Source: a virus. From it: a stretch of DNA of 15,109 nt. This document shows positions 6,069 to 14,312 of the stretch, piece after piece (position 1 is the first letter of the stretch; each line of letters begins with the position of its first letter). The stretch lies in the UHGV virus genome UHGV-0224297; one strand, written 5' to 3'. The notes beneath the pieces are model-generated. The model had not been told where the DNA came from, did not search any database, and worked only from the letters and a program-made list of their open reading frames with translations. A program made the position numbers and the translations under genes.

Positions 6069-6806
6069 TTACGCGGTTTTAATTAACAGCAGATAGTCCT
6101 TCGTAAACTCAGCACAACTCCACCCTCTCATCGTGGCGATTTTACGAAGATCAATTTTCTCGTGATATTTCAATAAGGGATCGTCTGAGTTAATCTCAAC
6201 CAGGTGGGTGGCTTTAGAAATCGTTTCCACATCTGGGATCTGTTTTGCTAAGTCGGATGCAATCAGTTCAATAACGCGGTAACCCTTTAACACAGAAACA
6301 TAGATGCGCAAACCATATAGCGTGCCCTCGTCTTCTAATGGACAAAGATCGATGCCGGGTCCAAGCAGTGATAACTCGACGTTATCGGGAAGGTTTTCTG
6401 CATTTCGGAGTAACCCTATCCCATTTCTAAACAGAGGGAAGTAAGAGAATAGTGGTGGTAAAGCCCAACCGTTCCCAATAAGCACATCATCGATACTAGT
6501 AGGCGTGTTCGCAAGAAGACGAATGTGGTCAGCCACAACTTCAAGTTCGGCATCACTGATCAACTTATAGATTAACATGACACTGGTTTCGGTATTAATA
6601 ACGAAGAAGACGCGGTTGGCGTAACTGCCTATCACGTATTCGTCAATCATACAGTCGATAACGTCACTGTCTGGATAATCTTCAGGTTTAATTGTTCCAG
6701 CATCGATTAACTTAGCAGGTTGCGATTGTTTTAATAGTTCGTTAACAACAGTAGAAGAAAGTTCTAAACTGGTGTTAGTAAAGATATCGTCTAATAATTC
6801 TCTCAT
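6069..6806 (-). CDS. GW-QLLF family protein, divergent member (245 aa)
   Basis: ATG at 6804-6806 with a weak RBS; first gene after the divergent control region. C-terminus RGWSCAEFTKDYLLLIKTA is a degenerate form of the motif. N-terminus MRELLDDIF and internal LLGPGID ... GLRIY match the 3482..4255 product. Confidence 0.7.
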   Translation of the reverse strand: MRELLDDIFTNTSLELSSTVVNELLKQSQPAKLIDAGTIKPEDYPDSDVIDCMIDEYVIGSYANRVFFVINTETSVMLIYKLISDAELEVVADHIRLLANTPTSIDDVLIGNGWALPPLFSYFPLFRNGIGLLRNAENLPDNVELSLLGPGIDLCPLEDEGTLYGLRIYVSVLKGYRVIELIASDLAKQIPDVETISKATHLVEINSDDPLLKYHEKIDLRKIATMRGWSCAEFTKDYLLLIKTA

Positions 6807-6901
6807 GATTTACTCGCTAATCTCAATAAAGGGGAGTCTATTATTATGGATTGCAGAAGAGGAATAAGGAAGTCACTACGTTCCTCTGGGAAGAGTATGT
6901 C

Positions 6902-6918
6902 GGTATACTACGTATACC
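6902..6918. promoter_or_regulatory. inverted repeat GGTATAC-TAC-GTATACC (7-3-7), candidate operator
   Basis: Perfect 7-bp arms with a 3-bp spacer. A third GTATAC lies at 6935-6940 and a GGTATCC at 6963-6969. A TATAAATA (T4 late-promoter-like) reads on the minus strand at 6924-6931. Confidence 0.35.
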
Positions 6919-7107
6919 TCCGCTATTTATATCCGTATACATAATGCCCCCTACCCCCTACCGGTATCCCGAGTAGCAGAATAAAGGGGCAGACTGTAAA
7001 ATTTTAGTACCTGTTATCGGAAGGTACTAAATGGAGTGTAGTCTTTAAGCCGTTTGAGCAGCTCATTGAGACTTTCTTTTTTAGTAGACATGATCTGTCA
7101 CCCCAAA

Positions 7108-7116
7108 TGGTATAAT
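7108..7116 (+). promoter_or_regulatory. candidate sigma70 extended -10 box (TGGTATAAT)
   Basis: Exact TGnTATAAT at 7108-7116 on the plus strand. No good -35 (TAGACA at 7085-7090 is 20 bp away). Would start transcription near 7123, toward the 7225 gene. Confidence 0.4.
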
Positions 7117-7143
7117 CAATCCGTTTCGAATGAAACGTGTCCG

Positions 7144-7172
7144 TAGGGACTGAAGTGCCAGTTCAGTCCCTA
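7144..7172. other. strong stem-loop (11-bp stem, 7-nt loop)
   Basis: TAGGGACTGAA-GTGCCAG-TTCAGTCCCTA. No U-tract on either side, so it is not a canonical terminator. Lies immediately adjacent to element copy 2. Confidence 0.55.
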
Positions 7173-7173
7173 T

Positions 7174-7199
7174 TCACTTAAGTAATATATATCTGAATT
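7174..7199. promoter_or_regulatory. conserved element copy 2 (core TAAGTAATATATATCTGAA)
   Basis: The 19-bp core at 7179-7197 is identical to copy 1. It sits 28 nt upstream of the ATG at 7225, next to the 7144-7172 hairpin, in the divergent control region. Confidence 0.5.
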
Positions 7200-7224
7200 C
7201 AATTCCGATCTAAGGAACGTCCCG

Positions 7225-8190
7225 ATGGAGAAATCCAGTGTTGATTTTTTCTCAATTGGTATCGTCGCGGAAGACAAACCCCGTGGTACAGATCGGGTAA
7301 AAGTGATACCAATTGAAACCAACTTTGCTAACCCTACCGTGGTGCAATCTGTTTCTTCAGCAACTGAAAAGACGCATGAAACATCTGGTGCAACAGATAA
7401 CCTAACCATTAAGACGGGTAACACGATAACAGCAAAGTGGTGGAAGTTTAACTCCAACCGAATTAATTCCCCTGACGTTAAACGAGAAGATTACGTTATC
7501 TTGTTACGTTTGGGGAAAACCGATATTTATTTTTGGATTGATCTGAACTTCGCTAACGTTAAGCGATTAGAGGATGCGGTTTATGCGTGGTCTGCTGATT
7601 CTGAAAACCAGATGGCGGATGACCTGTCCAATGCGTATGTGTTGAATATCTCGACGATTGACAAACATATCACGCTAAGAACAAGTATGGTGAACGGTGA
7701 GAAAGCGGCGTGGTTGTTTCAGTTTGATAATGCAAACGGTACGTGGCAGTGTGTTGACCATAAAGGAAACAAGTATTACATTAACTCGGTTGAAGATGAT
7801 CTCGGGTTTGAGAATGCGATGCTTTCAAAAGTGAACATCAACAAAGAAGATGCGTTCATTTATTCAAAGCGTTCTATTAACCTGGAAACGAAAACAATTA
7901 ATGAAAAATGCGAAGTTCGCAATACGGAAGCAGCGAAATCCGTTACGTTTAAAACGCAAACCTGGTTAACGGAAGCAGGGAGTTCGACAACATTTAAAAC
8001 GCCGAACTTTAAACAAGAAGGGAATGAAGCGATGTTCACCGGTAATCTGGAAATCGCTAAGAACTTCAAATACGGTGGTACGGGCAAAGGCGTCGGTGTC
8101 TTTACGGTTAAAGATGCCGTTATTTCTGGTATTACCTTTAGCGTTCACATTCACCAAGGTAAACATGGCCCGACATCACCTCCGCAATAA
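7225..8190 (+). CDS. putative baseplate central spike protein (321 aa; function tentative)
   Basis: ATG at 7225-7227 with AAGGA RBS (7212-7216). The N-terminal region (GIVAEDKPRGTDRVKV ... KWWKF ... DYVILLRLG) resembles, from memory, the OB-fold of P2 gpV-type spike proteins. The C-terminus VHIHQGKHGPTSPPQ resembles the His-rich metal-binding tip of such spikes. The coding call is firm; the functional call is not. Confidence 0.65.
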   Translation: MEKSSVDFFSIGIVAEDKPRGTDRVKVIPIETNFANPTVVQSVSSATEKTHETSGATDNLTIKTGNTITAKWWKFNSNRINSPDVKREDYVILLRLGKTDIYFWIDLNFANVKRLEDAVYAWSADSENQMADDLSNAYVLNISTIDKHITLRTSMVNGEKAAWLFQFDNANGTWQCVDHKGNKYYINSVEDDLGFENAMLSKVNINKEDAFIYSKRSINLETKTINEKCEVRNTEAAKSVTFKTQTWLTEAGSSTTFKTPNFKQEGNEAMFTGNLEIAKNFKYGGTGKGVGVFTVKDAVISGITFSVHIHQGKHGPTSPPQ

Positions 8191-8308
8191 TTCCCCTTTT
8201 TCTTACGTTGTTTTTATATATTGTGACCTGACGTTGGTAAAACTTTTTATCAACACTTTTCTTAAACCCATCGTTTAGTTAAGCAGGCCACTTTTTTCGC
8301 GCACTCTA

Positions 8309-8340
8309 CTCCTCCCTACGGGGAGGAGCTATCTTATGCT
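8309..8340 (+). terminator. GC-rich stem-loop; weak terminator or 5'-leader structure
   Basis: 8-bp stem CTCCTCCC / GGGAGGAG with a UACG tetraloop (8309-8328). Followed by a moderately U-rich CUAUCUUAUGCUU. Lies 120 nt after the 7225..8190 stop and 70 nt before the DUF1471 start. Confidence 0.35.
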
Positions 8341-8396
8341 TCGGTTGTAACACACGTCGGTCTTAGACCACTAACCTTTTGAAATGGAGAGCTGTT

Positions 8397-8606
8397 ATGT
8401 CTATTAAAGAGTTCTCTTCTGCTGAGCATATTCCAGAAGAGTTTAAGAAAATCGGTAACGTCAGCGCTTTCGGCGATACCGTTGATCATGTAACTGGTAA
8501 ACTGGCTGCTGAAGCCGAAAAAATTGGCGGCGACGCATTCAAAGTTATCGGTATTTCCGGCAACAACAAACTGCACGGTAACGCGATTGTCTACAAAAAA
8601 GACTAA
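8397..8606 (+). CDS. DUF1471 (YdgH/BhsA/McbA-like) domain protein without signal peptide (69 aa)
   Basis: ATG at 8397-8399 with GGAGA RBS (8386-8390). The track start at 8379 is a TTG and an in-frame stop lies at 8364-8366, so no N-terminal extension is possible. The C-terminal FKVIGISGNNKLHGNAIVYKKD resembles enterobacterial BhsA-type proteins as I recall them (ending ...TLHGTAVIYK). No hydrophobic N-terminal segment. Confidence 0.65.
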   Translation: MSIKEFSSAEHIPEEFKKIGNVSAFGDTVDHVTGKLAAEAEKIGGDAFKVIGISGNNKLHGNAIVYKKD

Positions 8607-8609
8607 GCG

Positions 8610-8667
8610 AAAAAAAAAACGTGCTACTCCTACCCTCTTAGAGGGTAGGAGGTTACTTTATTTTTTT
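8610..8667. terminator. bidirectional intrinsic terminator between convergent genes
   Basis: Perfect 11-bp stem CTCCTACCCTC-TTA-GAGGGTAGGAG (8627-8651). Flanked by an A10 run (8610-8619) on one side and a T-rich run (8652-8667) on the other. Sits between the DUF1471 stop (8606) and the minus-strand gene stop (8658). Confidence 0.8.
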
Positions 8668-9920
8668 CGTGCTTTAAAGCGATGCATTTCTAAATACACT
8701 TTTTCCCAGGGACCGAATGGACCAACGATTGCTTGAGCATCGTTAATCTTCTTCTGATTATACCACCGGGCTTCACGAAAGACGTAGTTTTGACTGTCGA
8801 ATTCGGTAGTGTTAAATACCCACTCACCTTCCTCCCACGTAGGCCAATAACCTACCGTCTTACCAAATCGATTATTTAAGTACCCTAATGGTTTTTCAGA
8901 ATCAGGATCGTTGGGGTCCTTGAGGTAACAGCGTCCCCAAACGGCGTTATGCGAAACACCCACAACTTCTTCTTCTAAATACGGATTATCTACCGTAAAG
9001 ATAAAAGAGGATTCGTGGAGTAAAAGCGCCTTCAGTGTTTCAGGGTTACGAATACGTTGAACGTTGGTAGGCGATGATAAATCCCCTACACCGATGCTAT
9101 CCCAGTCGTAATAACGGCGGGTTTCCAGAACGGTCCGTGCAAGATCAAAATTCGGTAAAGAAATCATGATCGCACGGTCAGAGAAATAACCGTCCGGGGG
9201 CAACCAACGTAACAATCCGCCTATGACGAAACCCACGGTTTTCCCCGTAATAGACTCAGGCAGCGATATCATTAACGTGGAGTAATAGTCGCGTGTAGTG
9301 TCGAGCTTGTTTAGCGTAAGGTTGGCGATTGGATAGGTTTTAACATTCCCTAGCTGACCAAAAACCATACAGCCAATATCTGGCGTACATGCTCTCCGTA
9401 CGATTTTACCGGCCCCAGGCAATCGAACACCTACGGTATCCGTCTGGTGTGGTACCCATTGACCGTTAATGTTGTACAGCACACTATTACGGTATTTGTC
9501 TTTCCACTTGTCCTCACAAACGACGACAACGTCATCAGCATCGTCTAAGCTGAAATCTTGACTGTGGTGGTACCCTGGTGGACACAGATATGTTTCGACA
9601 GGTACATCGGCATTAATTGATTGGTAGTGTGCCCAACTGAATTCCAGTTTCGGCAATCCAGCCTTTAGAGTGGGAATGACGTTTCCGGCCTTTTCGTTTA
9701 ACCAATCTTGTAAAGTGTCTGTTCGGTTTTGTAGTTCAGCAAGATGGTATTGACTGACTAACGTATAGTCTTTACCAAGTGCACTTAAACCGATCTCAAA
9801 GGTGTGGTAGTCTGAACACAACGTAGTTAAGGGTTGCGTGACATCGATGGCTCCCCAGGTACGGGACTCTCGAGAGAAGCCAAAAGCGCTGTCGGGCCGC
9901 ACTTGATAAGCAGTAGTCAC
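8658..9920 (-). CDS. hypothetical protein (420 aa), Trp/Tyr-rich, possibly structural or enzymatic
   Basis: Long ORF with GTG start at 9918-9920 and a GAGG box about 10 nt upstream; no in-frame ATG near the start. Stop at 8658-8660 lies inside the bidirectional terminator region. Transcribed opposite to both flanking plus-strand genes. Confidence 0.65.
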   Translation of the reverse strand: MTTAYQVRPDSAFGFSRESRTWGAIDVTQPLTTLCSDYHTFEIGLSALGKDYTLVSQYHLAELQNRTDTLQDWLNEKAGNVIPTLKAGLPKLEFSWAHYQSINADVPVETYLCPPGYHHSQDFSLDDADDVVVVCEDKWKDKYRNSVLYNINGQWVPHQTDTVGVRLPGAGKIVRRACTPDIGCMVFGQLGNVKTYPIANLTLNKLDTTRDYYSTLMISLPESITGKTVGFVIGGLLRWLPPDGYFSDRAIMISLPNFDLARTVLETRRYYDWDSIGVGDLSSPTNVQRIRNPETLKALLLHESSFIFTVDNPYLEEEVVGVSHNAVWGRCYLKDPNDPDSEKPLGYLNNRFGKTVGYWPTWEEGEWVFNTTEFDSQNYVFREARWYNQKKINDAQAIVGPFGPWEKVYLEMHRFKARKK

Positions 9921-9989: not shown

Positions 9990-12900
9990 ATGGCTGTCGT
10001 CTTAGACCCACACTTCAAAAAACCGGGGAATAAAATAACCGGTGAAGCGGTCGCCGTCATTGGTACGAAATACCGAATGTTGGTACCTGCCCACGCCCCT
10101 TTTTTCACCACATCCCTGGTGGTCAAGAGCGGCGGCAAAATACTGACCTTAGGCGACGATTACGTTATTACACACCCGTACGAGACTGGTATGTTGCGCA
10201 CAGCCTATCTCATTCACGGGATGATTTGGATTGTTAATGACAAATACAAATCGAATTTTACTGTAGATTACCATGCTGTTGGTTGTGGTGAAGCAACCCA
10301 AGAGCAGATTACCGCAGAGCGCGAGCTTAATAAAGGTAAATACCCCTCCGCGTGTCAGTGGGACACCGTCATCGGAGACGTTTACTTTCCACCGGTCGAT
10401 ATCCAGTTCGATTGGGAGAATTGGAAAGGTGAACTGGAGCTAATGCAGGCCATTGCTGGGGTAGGCGATTCGTTAGGGGAAGTCGTGAGTCGACTTAACC
10501 CAATCGCGCGCAATACACTGGATTTGGAATATCGTGCTAATAGTAAGGTTATCACTTCCGAGCAGTATGCCGCGTACGACAATAAAGGCGGTTTCACCTA
10601 CAACACAGCTCGCCACCGTTATAGCTTGAGTTATAACGCGACAACCTTTAACGACTATTCCCTGTTGGTGAAACACAGAATTCCTGCTATTCTGCCAGAC
10701 ATGACAAAGTTGAATCCGAACGAACAGATCGATTGGATGCTCTGTTATGCCAACGGCGGTGCAAGCATTCTACGGTTACAGCTAAAACAGCGCAAAATCT
10801 CACTGGTCTTAACTGTCGCTATTGGCAGTGGTTCAACAAACTACGATTATACTTTAATCAACGGTTTAACTGACGATGAGTTAAAAAACGATATCGATTT
10901 TAGTGTAACCCGACAACCCGGAAACGGCGTTTACGTAATCGTAGTAAAAACAAATAAACAGACCATGGATTATACATTCAACGTCGATACGCCGCCTGAT
11001 GAGTTCTCGGCAGGGTATTCGAAAACGGATGTAGCCAAATGGTTGAAGTCTAAAACGAACATTAACCTGAACTGGTATGCGGCTGAAAACGATTATATTC
11101 AAATTCGTTCTTTACCCGGTGCGCCGGAGCCTGACGTCGATAACGATGTTTACCAGTTAATAGTTAAGTATCATCAGTTGGTTGAGCAGCTGTATCGTAA
11201 TGCGCCTGCGCACGAACACGTTACACGTAAGGACAACCCACACACAGATACGTGGGGTCCGATCCGTGCGTTGGAGTTGAACGGCATTGCGTCGGATGCA
11301 GCGTTAGCTTACGGGAAAACGAAGCCGCAGTTAACGGATTATGTTAATGCTAAGTATCCAACACAAGCGACGTTGACAGCACAAAAGAAACTATTGCGCA
11401 CGTCAGCTTCGAAAACAGCCGACGGAACCATTGGAACGCTACCCGGTTTTACTTCGTTCACGACAGAAGTTGATCCGGTTTCGATGTCTAAATACGTGAA
11501 CCCTTATTTTAGCGAAAGCTATGTTCGTCAAGGTCACACGTATCATGGCGCGCTTCGTTACACAGGAACGAAGAATGGATTTAGTGCTTCTTTTAATGCG
11601 GTGCCTGCCAACCTGCAAGATATTGACTTTATTGTTACCGGACGTAAAACAGCGTCAGGTAATGAAGCAGTCGGTACGGCTGGTTTACGTTTCTACGAAA
11701 ATCCCGGTAGTAACTCCGGCAAGTACGTAGAAATTATCGGTCAAATCTGGGGAGGTACTCTTACTATCGAACTGGCGTTGCACGGTTACGGGAATCCGGT
11801 ACCGTCAGTTCGGTATATTTCTCAAGCTCCTAATCCGGCAATACCGGATGGGGATTTTACGCTGCGTTTTCAACTGAAGCGTACAGGGAACGTGTTTGAC
11901 GCCGTTATTACCGTAAATGGTAAAACGTATAGCGCTCGGATTAACTTCGATAACATGGACGCTGCGTTAGAAGCATTGGAGAATCGGCATCACTTTAAAT
12001 CGCTGATCAATAATGTTGCCGATGGCGTCACTATTAGTTCGCAAAACAAAGGTAACACGGTTACCATTAAGAAAGCACCTGACGTCGTTGACGAGACACG
12101 TTTAGGTGCCCAGTTTGTCGTTGACCCGAAATCCATTAAGTTCATCGGCCAAGGTTCTACCGATGTTAACGTGGGTAATAACCCGGTAACGTTGCAAGCG
12201 GGCGATAACCAGCTTGTGCTATACCCCGATGACCGTGGATTACTGTGGCGTGGTAAGAAGCTCTTAGACCCCACCACGGTAGCGCCGTATTTGCCGGGCA
12301 ATACTGCAGGCGGAACGGGATTATTCTACGGTGCATCTACAGCTACGGTGGAGCTTACCGGTAGCGGGATTAAAGCATCACCATTCGTGGCAACGTTCAT
12401 TCTTCCGGTTGCCGAAGACGTTACTACGTTAGCGTGTTGGCAGTTAACGGACGAATTCGGTACGGCTGAAAACCTCGCGGCAACCCCTGCGTTAATCGAA
12501 AAACTGGACGCTGAGTTTACCGGTAAATTGGTTGCAGCTAAATCGTACATTAACGACATGCAACTTACCAGCTCAGTTACTATCGACAAAATTACCTTTG
12601 GTTTGGGTAACGTTGCGAATACACCCGATGTCGATTTGCCGATCTCTACAGCACAGCAGGCGGAGTTAGATAAATATTCGCCTAAAGTACACCACCACCC
12701 ATTTACCGCATTTGGTACCGGGAACGCAACCACCGCGAAACGTGGCTTGATTAAATTTGGTCTGGATGTGGACGATGCGACTTTAGCACTCGATGGTAGT
12801 GTGGTAATGGCGCAGACTTCCCAGATTGAAAAATTGGAAAATGCTGTCGGTGGCGTTGACTCGGAGGCACGTCTTGACATTATACGTTTTGGTAAGTCAG

Positions 12901-14312
12901 GTAACGACTTAATTGATGTTACGGTCAAAGACAAAATTCTGGTTACACTTCCAGCCTCAACGTATTATATCGGTGGTGAAACGTACGCCGTGCCGTTGAT
13001 GACGATTAACGTCAGTGAACGTTTTCCGAAATTGAATACGGAAATCTACGCGGGGATTTTTGTTGATATTGTTGACAACAAAGCGAAGTACATCATCCAC
13101 GACAGCTACAGTCAGGCTGAAACGGATACCATGACGCGTGTGGGATTAATCGGCGTCAATGACCTTTCTGAAGTGTTCGTTACAGAGATGCGTAATGTCA
13201 CACGGCTGGACGATTTCCGTGAACTGAAAGATCATGCTGCTGACGATAACGCACATATTCATCGCTCCACGACACGTGCAGTGCTTGGGTTAGCTAACTT
13301 AACAGTAGGTGCGCCCTGCTGGGCTTCTGGACTCCAGGCAGTAGTACGTGGTGAAGCAGACTGGCGTTATGTTGTCGGTGGACAGTATAAAGCCTTAGAC
13401 GGGGTGAAATACGACCAGATCGCATCAAGGTGGATTTTCGATGCGAAAGGGGTAAGTGATAACGTTCACGGGTTTATTCACAACCTATTCCCGACTTTCA
13501 AAAACGCAGGAATGCGGGTAAGTTGGGAAACAGAAAGCAACGCAAAAACCGGAACAGTGTTAGAAACTGTTTTAGGTTGTTGGAAGAACACCGACGGCGA
13601 GCTTATGCGGTTGTCATTACTTATCACTCGCGGTTATCGTTTAACTGACAGTAACGGTGAATATTGTTACGCAGGGTTCGGTTTGAACTTCGGTAACGGG
13701 AAATCGGTAGTGATAGGTTTCACACCAACGAAGCGTGTCACAGCTGCACCGTGGAGTTCATTACAACCCGAAGTATCGTTTACCCACAACCGTGGTGCGG
13801 ATAACGCAATAACGTTTAATGCAAGACTGATCTTAGCGGGGACTGCGTATACTGTTGTTGTGCATTTATCTGCGACGGACAAATACGTAAGCTGTACGGC
13901 GGCAGGAGGAACTACGCAGAAAATCCCATTAGCTGACCGTTTAACAGGGTTCAATATCGAACCTATCGTTAACGATCCGTATACCCCTATTTACTACGGT
14001 TTAGGGGGACTTTATGAGGATGAGGTCCGTGCCGATATCCGTTCTGCGGGAGATAGCGCAACTGCGAATAAAGTCTACGGTACGTTGTTGGACTATATTA
14101 GCAACTATTCCTCATTAAATCGTGTGCGCGTTATGGAATTGACCGGTGTCAGTTCAGACCCCGAAACGCTTAATGCGTTAGTGGCAACTGAATTTAATAA
14201 CAGCCTGGCGGATTACGCTGCGTTACCGGTACCTCCTTATCTTAACAAGGAGCGCGTAATGTCGTTTATCGACACCAACAATAAAGTGCAGGCGGTAATC
14301 ATTCGCGATTAA
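9990..14312 (+). CDS. giant protein (1440 aa), probable virion structural protein (tail fibre or baseplate-associated)
   Basis: Uninterrupted 4.3-kb ORF with ATG at 9990 and AGGAG RBS (9979-9983) 6 nt upstream. Composition is rich in G/T/N/V/D/Y, as in beta-rich fibre proteins. No Walker A motif, polymerase motif or YD repeat was seen. Confidence 0.85.
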   Translation: MAVVLDPHFKKPGNKITGEAVAVIGTKYRMLVPAHAPFFTTSLVVKSGGKILTLGDDYVITHPYETGMLRTAYLIHGMIWIVNDKYKSNFTVDYHAVGCGEATQEQITAERELNKGKYPSACQWDTVIGDVYFPPVDIQFDWENWKGELELMQAIAGVGDSLGEVVSRLNPIARNTLDLEYRANSKVITSEQYAAYDNKGGFTYNTARHRYSLSYNATTFNDYSLLVKHRIPAILPDMTKLNPNEQIDWMLCYANGGASILRLQLKQRKISLVLTVAIGSGSTNYDYTLINGLTDDELKNDIDFSVTRQPGNGVYVIVVKTNKQTMDYTFNVDTPPDEFSAGYSKTDVAKWLKSKTNINLNWYAAENDYIQIRSLPGAPEPDVDNDVYQLIVKYHQLVEQLYRNAPAHEHVTRKDNPHTDTWGPIRALELNGIASDAALAYGKTKPQLTDYVNAKYPTQATLTAQKKLLRTSASKTADGTIGTLPGFTSFTTEVDPVSMSKYVNPYFSESYVRQGHTYHGALRYTGTKNGFSASFNAVPANLQDIDFIVTGRKTASGNEAVGTAGLRFYENPGSNSGKYVEIIGQIWGGTLTIELALHGYGNPVPSVRYISQAPNPAIPDGDFTLRFQLKRTGNVFDAVITVNGKTYSARINFDNMDAALEALENRHHFKSLINNVADGVTISSQNKGNTVTIKKAPDVVDETRLGAQFVVDPKSIKFIGQGSTDVNVGNNPVTLQAGDNQLVLYPDDRGLLWRGKKLLDPTTVAPYLPGNTAGGTGLFYGASTATVELTGSGIKASPFVATFILPVAEDVTTLACWQLTDEFGTAENLAATPALIEKLDAEFTGKLVAAKSYINDMQLTSSVTIDKITFGLGNVANTPDVDLPISTAQQAELDKYSPKVHHHPFTAFGTGNATTAKRGLIKFGLDVDDATLALDGSVVMAQTSQIEKLENAVGGVDSEARLDIIRFGKSGNDLIDVTVKDKILVTLPASTYYIGGETYAVPLMTINVSERFPKLNTEIYAGIFVDIVDNKAKYIIHDSYSQAETDTMTRVGLIGVNDLSEVFVTEMRNVTRLDDFRELKDHAADDNAHIHRSTTRAVLGLANLTVGAPCWASGLQAVVRGEADWRYVVGGQYKALDGVKYDQIASRWIFDAKGVSDNVHGFIHNLFPTFKNAGMRVSWETESNAKTGTVLETVLGCWKNTDGELMRLSLLITRGYRLTDSNGEYCYAGFGLNFGNGKSVVIGFTPTKRVTAAPWSSLQPEVSFTHNRGADNAITFNARLILAGTAYTVVVHLSATDKYVSCTAAGGTTQKIPLADRLTGFNIEPIVNDPYTPIYYGLGGLYEDEVRADIRSAGDSATANKVYGTLLDYISNYSSLNRVRVMELTGVSSDPETLNALVATEFNNSLADYAALPVPPYLNKERVMSFIDTNNKVQAVIIRD

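Follow-up and report, generated by a model that had tools for sequence, protein, structure and literature searches.

Gene content of the locus

The window, by which we mean the whole 15,109-nucleotide stretch of the UHGV virus genome UHGV-0224297 analysed here, contains a plus-strand open reading frame at 7225-8190 that a preliminary description had read as a candidate baseplate spike. Translation bore out this frame, with an ATG start and 321 aa plus a stop, and the sequence strings quoted from its product were all recovered in place: residues 12-27 are GIVAEDKPRGTDRVKV, the WW pair occupies 72-73, VILLRLG lies at 91-97 and the final 15 residues (307-321) are VHIHQGKHGPTSPPQ. The ATG is backed by relatives that open with the identical MEKSxVDFFSIG. 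A full-length match to PHROG 3216 (phrog_3216, 'baseplate assembly protein'; E 1.7e-112, residues 1-314 against profile positions 1-316 of 325) and a family that an exhaustive profile search put at 1,589 representative clusters, of which 956 reach E <= 1e-30, together indicate a real gene. Features of the gene and its downstream neighbours are as follows.

7225..8190, plus strand: probable central baseplate spike gene, ortholog of SPN3US gp173 and Stratton gp192, homologue of phiKZ gp164
7225..7554, plus strand: N-terminal OB-fold domain (~residues 1-110), from the AlphaFold2 (AF2) model and its superposition on 6ORJ
7555..8121, plus strand: beta-strand-rich shaft (~residues 111-299), from AF2 pLDDT and alignment to the phiKZ gp164 beta-helix
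8122..8187, plus strand: apex domain (~residues 300-321), from homology to the Mu gp45/P2 gpV apex
8146..8154, plus strand: H308-I309-H310, predicted histidine-cage motif, from gap-free alignment to Mu and P2 and from conservation
8164..8166, plus strand: H314, lineage-specific third His, from alignments
8309..8328, plus strand: GC-rich hairpin 119 nt past the spike stop, from a terminator-like scan (8 pairs, 6 GC)
8397..8606, plus strand: YdgH/BhsA (DUF1471) domain protein of 69 aa (PF07338, 38 bits against a cutoff of 27), ortholog of SPN3US gp172, with the gene call taken from scaffold L008
8658..9920, minus strand: ortholog of SPN3US gp171 and homologue of phiKZ gp130 (PHROG 3337, E 3e-144)
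9990..14312, plus strand: virion structural protein of 1440 aa, counterpart of SPN3US gp170 by position (PHROG 7557, E 0, and synteny)

The window belongs to a jumbo myovirus from the group that holds SPN3US (Seoulvirus) and phiEaH2 (Erskinevirus), in agreement with the earlier inference of a myovirus-like phage. Neighbouring genes gave 73-76% nucleotide matches to the Erwinia phages Asesino, Stratton and phiEaH2 and to SPN3US-type Salmonella phages, identity of the spike protein is 72% with Stratton gp192 and 62% with the SPN3US-type ortholog, and gene order around it is conserved in SPN3US-, Stratton- and phiEaH2-type genomes. An identical spike protein with identical neighbours occurs on a 222,830-bp metagenome scaffold, scaffold_4 of ENA ERZ28649315, and a 93%-identical protein (P0001) was found in many Salmonella enterica isolate assemblies. 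P0001 represents 275 member sequences named from such assemblies, the longest contig being 220 kb, which suggests that this lineage is often co-sequenced with Salmonella isolates, perhaps through a carrier state or pseudolysogeny.

The preliminary description had also expected the gene to open the tail and baseplate module, but no contiguous module of that kind begins with it. It adjoins, at one edge, a baseplate-periphery and fibre cluster in a genome with scattered structural genes; the sheath gene lies ~70 kb away in Stratton, the closest complete genome, and divergently transcribed genes of unknown function lie upstream. On the downstream side, the DUF1471 protein occupies the slot of the phiKZ PAAR tip gene and is unrelated to PAAR; in the portion of the SPN3US virion tables drawn on here, gp173 comes straight after gp171, without gp172. 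SPN3US gp171 corresponds to phiKZ ORF130 and is essential and tail-associated, and the phiKZ atlas describes gp130 as an outer-baseplate connector and fibre-docking protein. SPN3US gp170 is a member of paralog family C and a phiKZ gp131-like baseplate/fibre protein. Its counterpart here is ~200 residues longer, and because residues 693-1440 match positions 473-1221 of phrog_7557, the extra sequence falls in the N-terminal half.

Two GC-rich hairpins were seen on the plus strand, at 8309-8328 after the spike gene and at 8627-8651 after the DUF1471 gene, the latter between convergent genes. Seven terminator-like sites were counted in the region against 1.8 expected in shuffles, and the hairpin at 8309..8328 is a possible, if weak, candidate for a transcript end. 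A sigma-70 promoter scan of 6700-8700 gave four sites against 3.9 expected, hence no signal, which is unsurprising because phiKZ-like phages use their own RNA polymerases.

Two further gene groups lie on the minus strand of the window. Between 3482 and 6806 are four tandem paralogous frames (257, 383, 179 and 245 aa) that share a C-terminal '...GW..V...G.QLLF.A', with G236, W237, L247 and L248 invariant in their alignment; searches gave no significant Pfam match and only weak PHROG matches to families of unknown function. Between 558 and 2760 are five consecutive small frames (129, 136, 161, 130 and 153 aa) with signal-peptide-like hydrophobic N-termini, the 153-aa frame being marked PF27224 (YfjT) on scaffold L008. 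We read these as a cluster of predicted exported proteins whose position is conserved in SPN3US and Stratton.

A phiKZ gp164-type spike body

The best PDB sequence match of the spike protein was phiKZ gp164 (PHIKZ164; 6ORJ, 9XPH; E 9e-22 over residues 4-259), strengthening to E 7.5e-56 with a profile of 25 relatives. We built an AF2 monomer model from 29 relatives, with a mean pLDDT of 76 and values above 87 in most of residues 1-30 and 65-250 (91-96 for shaft residues 121-240, and 87-89 for the OB-fold outside an insertion). OB-fold strands were placed at 6-14, 24-30, 68-72, 90-96 and 102-106, followed by a long series of short strands; residues 33-64 form a variable, low-confidence hairpin insertion within the OB-fold. 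Foldseek searches with the model returned the phiKZ baseplate central region (9XPH, E 1.5e-16) and central spike (6ORJ, E 3.6e-16), then spikes of extracellular contractile injection systems (eCIS), type VI secretion system (T6SS) VgrG, the PVC spike and the P1 baseplate, with weaker matches to the R2 pyocin spike, Mu gp45 and P2 gpV. The window protein thus has the OB-fold followed by a beta-helical shaft that marks gp164-like spikes, and in a trimer the shaft is expected to form an intertwined triple beta-helix. By analogy with phiKZ, the OB-fold domain would dock onto the hub protein, and trimerisation and a part in penetration are likewise inferred by homology.

The eCIS and VgrG matches (AlgoCIS, Anabaena CIS, T6SS VgrG and PVC spikes, E 3e-6 to 2e-3) could be taken to mean an effector-carrying VgrG-like or eCIS-type spike, or part of a non-phage contractile injection system. 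We regard this as extremely improbable. Those targets are 527-613 residues long and were matched only over the OB-fold and beta-helix (target-normalised TM 0.10-0.18), but the window protein has 321 aa, begins with its OB-fold and carries neither a gp27-like hub domain nor a post-apex extension. The hub in SPN3US-type phages is a separate protein (SPN3US gp64, phiKZ ORF101), and the genomic context is the 222.8-kb jumbo-phage scaffold syntenic with SPN3US and EaH2. Protein length, domain content and genomic context effectively refute this reading and leave us with a phage spike.

The kinship to gpV-type spikes proposed in the preliminary description from the N-terminal 100 residues lies at the level of fold for the body; at the level of sequence it is confined to the final ~55-75 residues, through Mu gp45. 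The profile check proposed at the outset failed, Phage_base_V giving no match to the spike at E <= 10. In hmmscan, no Pfam family matched the whole protein at E <= 1, or its N-terminal 125 and C-terminal 81 residues at E <= 10, and the gathering thresholds of Phage_base_V, Phage_spike (PF18715) and Apex (PF18946) were not reached. Mu gp45 itself scores below cutoff on Phage_spike (26.8 bits; cutoff 28.2) and Apex (11.5 bits; cutoff 20.8), so for the apex the Pfam result is uninformative. A nearly full-length match to the spike profile (E 1.4e-34) was also given by chain qs of PDB entry 36za, a 362-aa chain named 'Tail terminator gp51'; by sequence this chain resembles a gp164-type spike, and the molecule name may be wrong or the chain labels swapped.

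The gp164 family is already solved, and its place in the virion is known from experiments on homologues of the window protein. The 2026 phiKZ cryo-EM atlas shows gp164 as a trimeric spike on hub gp101 and within pin ring gp174, with hairpins of gp101 touching the OB-fold domains of gp164. Thomas et al. give SPN3US gp173 as the phiKZ ORF164 homologue, and the SPN3US-phiKZ homologue table pairs gp64 with ORF101 (hub), gp173 with ORF164 (spike) and gp223 with ORF174 (pin). In their data, gp173 (34.6 kDa) is of low abundance in purified virions: Table S4 lists 8, 4 and 8 spectra in complete particles and 0 in the tailless am27 sup-, a pattern that matches the known tail proteins gp167-171 and gp202-203. 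Had the protein been absent from purified virions, the spike assignment would have been in trouble; its SPN3US ortholog is present in virions and missing from tailless particles. Baseplate position is therefore known from phiKZ and virion tail association from SPN3US, each in a homologue of the window spike. As a separate point, SPN3US gp64, tentatively labelled a head/neck protein in a 2016 paper, is the homologue of ORF101, the baseplate hub in the 2026 atlas, and this accounts for the lack of tails in the gp64 amber mutant.

The vague family annotation 'baseplate assembly protein' might point to a different beta-helical protein of the baseplate or fibres, located off the tail axis. We consider this very improbable, since the protein that it matches best in both structure and sequence, far ahead of any other, is a phiKZ protein experimentally placed on the baseplate axis, the low gp173 spectral counts fit a protein present in three copies, and the apex homology described below is specific to spikes. 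Length, domain content and context led us to reject that assignment in favour of the axial spike.

Close orthologs agree in the main with the window protein. The SPN3US gp173, Stratton gp192 and phiEaH2 orthologs (PHROG 3216) share 62-72% identity, synteny and the H-x-H motif with it. The Erskinevirus orthologs differ in length (308 against 321 aa), the window spike having an extra shaft rung of 13-15 residues at TFKTPNFKQEGNEAM.

The H-x-H apex and the question of a separate tip

The spike contains six histidines (51, 148, 179, 308, 310 and 314), three of which fall within the final 14 residues, an arrangement with a chance probability of ~0.002 (20 x (14/321)^3). Residues 268-320 matched Mu gp45 (3VTN, 3VTO, 9KI1) by phmmer at E 1e-3 to 6e-3 (best 1.3e-3), with a pairwise BLASTP value of 2e-8 and a profile E of 1.1e-7 for the apex. 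A gap-free alignment pairs H308 and H310 with Mu H183/H185 and P2 gpV H197/H199, and the motif stands 11 residues from the C-terminus, against 12 in both Mu and P2. H-x-H occurs close to the C-terminus in all 28 close relatives (P0001-P0028); across an alignment of 25 sequences, distant relatives among them, H310 never varies and H308 is at least 90% conserved. The AF2 monomer has pLDDT below 50 at residues 308-319, too low to define the fold of the apex.

Papers from the Leiman laboratory describe how three symmetry-related H-x-H motifs build an octahedral histidine cage round a buried Fe ion, and by the published rule a C-terminal H-x-H denotes a fused apex without a tip protein. Both marks of a fused-apex spike, the C-terminal H-x-H and homology to a solved apex, are present in the window protein. 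In a trimer, the three H308-x-H310 pairs would place six histidines round one metal ion, most likely Fe, the metal coordinated in P2 and Mu. Of the C-terminal histidine cluster proposed earlier as a metal site, the H308-x-H310 pair thus stands, aligned and conserved, but H314 does not, as relatives read E-Q-G-D-G there.

Among known spikes, the iron-loaded class (P2 gpV, 3QR7/3QR8; phi92 gp138; R2 pyocin PA0616) shares the combination of OB-fold, beta-helix and H-x-H apex with the window protein; P2-class spikes carry the Fe cage 12 residues from the C-terminus and fuse spike and tip in a single gene. Mu gp45 (197 aa) is homologous over its last ~55-75 residues, including H-I-H and the next glycine; its N-terminal half carries Pfam Phage_Mu_Gp45, unlike the window spike, with which it has no detectable N-terminal similarity.

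The comparison with phiKZ gp164 (6ORJ crystal; 9XPH cryo-EM) runs the other way, through the body to a different end. In phiKZ, gp164 has a blunt end on which the PAAR protein gp163.1 sits as a cap; the phiKZ-type protein (293 aa) ends '...FTAPRYDFT', without H-x-H, and the 88-aa gene after it passes Pfam PAAR at 28.7 bits against a cutoff of 27. The window spike is ~28 residues longer (321 against 293 aa), with ~60 residues past the gp164-aligned region that end in H-x-H, and where gp163.1 immediately follows gp164 in phiKZ, the next gene here encodes the unrelated DUF1471 protein.

We searched for a separate PAAR tip in three ways. tblastn with phiKZ gp163.1 matched 78 phage records, nearly all of them Pseudomonas jumbo phages, with none among Salmonella or Erwinia phages. 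An HMM built from seven diverse phage PAAR tip proteins, which detects PAAR-like tips only and recovered the phiKZ-type control at E 1.5e-41, was run on all six-frame segments of at least 40 aa from the complete Stratton genome, the window and L008, a 21-kb piece of the metagenome scaffold; no segment scored better than E 0.5, which is noise. The SPN3US-phiKZ homologue table has no partner for ORF163/163.1. With H-x-H present and PAAR not detected, we set aside the class of blunt, PAAR-capped spikes (phiKZ gp164 with gp163.1; T4 gp5 with gp5.4). Because phiKZ gp164 is PAAR-capped and lacks H-x-H, and no PAAR was detected here, we read the window protein from its sequence as a body of gp164 type that carries a fused apex of P2/Mu type with H-x-H. 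Within the PAAR-like range that the search covered, it is predicted to do without a separate tip protein.

One could instead suppose a central spike in which H-x-H serves as a clamp for trimer register or stability and a separate, unrecognised non-PAAR tip caps the end. H-x-H cages do occur along tail fibres, distant from the tip, where they keep chains in register; tip genes need not adjoin spike genes, a novel non-PAAR tip having been proposed for RB43; and the PAAR search covers PAAR-like proteins only. The motif of the window spike nevertheless sits 11 residues from the C-terminus, much as in P2 and Mu at 12, and the ~50 residues around it share homology with the apex of Mu. That type of apex is pointed, without the flat beta-helix platform of the type that PAAR binds, and PAAR was not detected in Stratton, the window or the Salmonella and Erwinia phages. 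We judge the clamp with a separate cap improbable, and prefer a fused, self-tipping apex.

Taken together, the homology, the fold, the conserved motif and the failure to detect any PAAR gene, all of them observed here, make the gene product very probably a central baseplate spike from a jumbo myovirus of the SPN3US/EaH2 type, self-tipped with a predicted H-x-H metal apex. Sequence, profile and fold comparisons and experiments on homologues all support the original proposal of a contractile-tail central spike with an OB-fold, a beta-helix and a histidine site at the apex.

The likely mode of action can be sketched from these parts. Three copies would form a needle whose N-terminal OB-folds rest on the trimeric hub that ends the tail tube; some ~190 residues in the middle would intertwine as a triple beta-helix shaft, and the final ~20 would close to a pointed apex in which the three H308-x-H310 pairs cage one metal, most likely Fe. 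On sheath contraction, the tube would push this needle through the host outer membrane, and the spike would then dissociate in the periplasm, leaving the tube open for delivery of the genome and ejection proteins. Outer-membrane piercing and periplasmic dissociation are taken from P2 data and the phiKZ model. The P2 apex is dispensable in laboratory infections, tip diameter being the main factor, so the functional weight of the tip in the window spike is uncertain.

These results fix the identity of one 'hypothetical' or 'baseplate assembly' protein of SPN3US-like jumbo phages, which are a genetic model system and candidates for phage therapy against Salmonella and Erwinia. They predict a difference from the phiKZ baseplate atlas, namely that the spike of SPN3US-like phages is self-tipped and iron-loaded and lacks a PAAR cap, which is useful for carrying the phiKZ model over to other jumbo phages. 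The known H-x-H rule is extended to a new lineage, and current understanding is not overturned.

Tip variation in the window protein and across the family

Beyond the H-x-H pair, the window apex reads H-I-H-Q-G-K-H-G-P-T-S, two residues shorter than that of the orthologs, which read H-x-H-T-E-Q-G-D-G-K-D-V-S. Where Mu, P2 and close relatives have an acidic G-D-(S/G)-G loop, the window apex has a Lys and the third His (K313-H314); these two correspond to D188-S189 of Mu gp45, with H314 at the Ser189 position of its G-D-S-G-G loop. Among relatives, H314 recurs only in P0001 (93% identical) and the distant P0190. The Asp of the Mu gp45 loop (D188) reportedly binds a Ca ion linked to membrane binding. 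It is conceivable, though unlikely, that the H314 side chains of the trimer, lying close to the axis, make up a second metal site further towards the tip, or that the K313-H314 substitution alters how the tip engages the membrane. The published Mu gp45 apex contains both Fe and Ca ions. We regard the substitution as a minor oddity of the window spike.

Across the family, 58 of 185 retrieved sequences carry H-x-H within the last 30 residues. The other endings found in this set include '...HGGPPCC' in nine sequences, '...SHGPH' in six and '...SAPNV' in many. The first of these, '...(S/T)HGGPPCC' (P0031, P0033, P0036, P0039-41, P0049, P0050 and P0052), gives each chain a group of one His and two Cys at its very C-terminus; the second occurs in P0032, P0034, P0035, P0038, P0051 and P0081. 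Both could be alternative metal-binding tips, and we found no description of either in the spike literature examined. A broader reading, in which the window carries a rare apex (H-x-H-x-G-x-H-G-P-T-S-P-P) and the tip of the spike family is an exchangeable module with several, partly undescribed solutions, strikes us as unlikely.

On a neighbour-joining (NJ) tree of 184 sequences (N-terminal 235 residues), the H-x-H state requires at least 15 changes, against ~50 with states shuffled; the tree is rough, since NJ was applied to divergent sequences, and chance may account for a few of the H-x-H matches. Tip type therefore appears clade-structured yet evolutionarily labile, with the window clade forming one uniform H-x-H block, and the pattern suggests that the body and the tip of these spikes are modules that can evolve separately.
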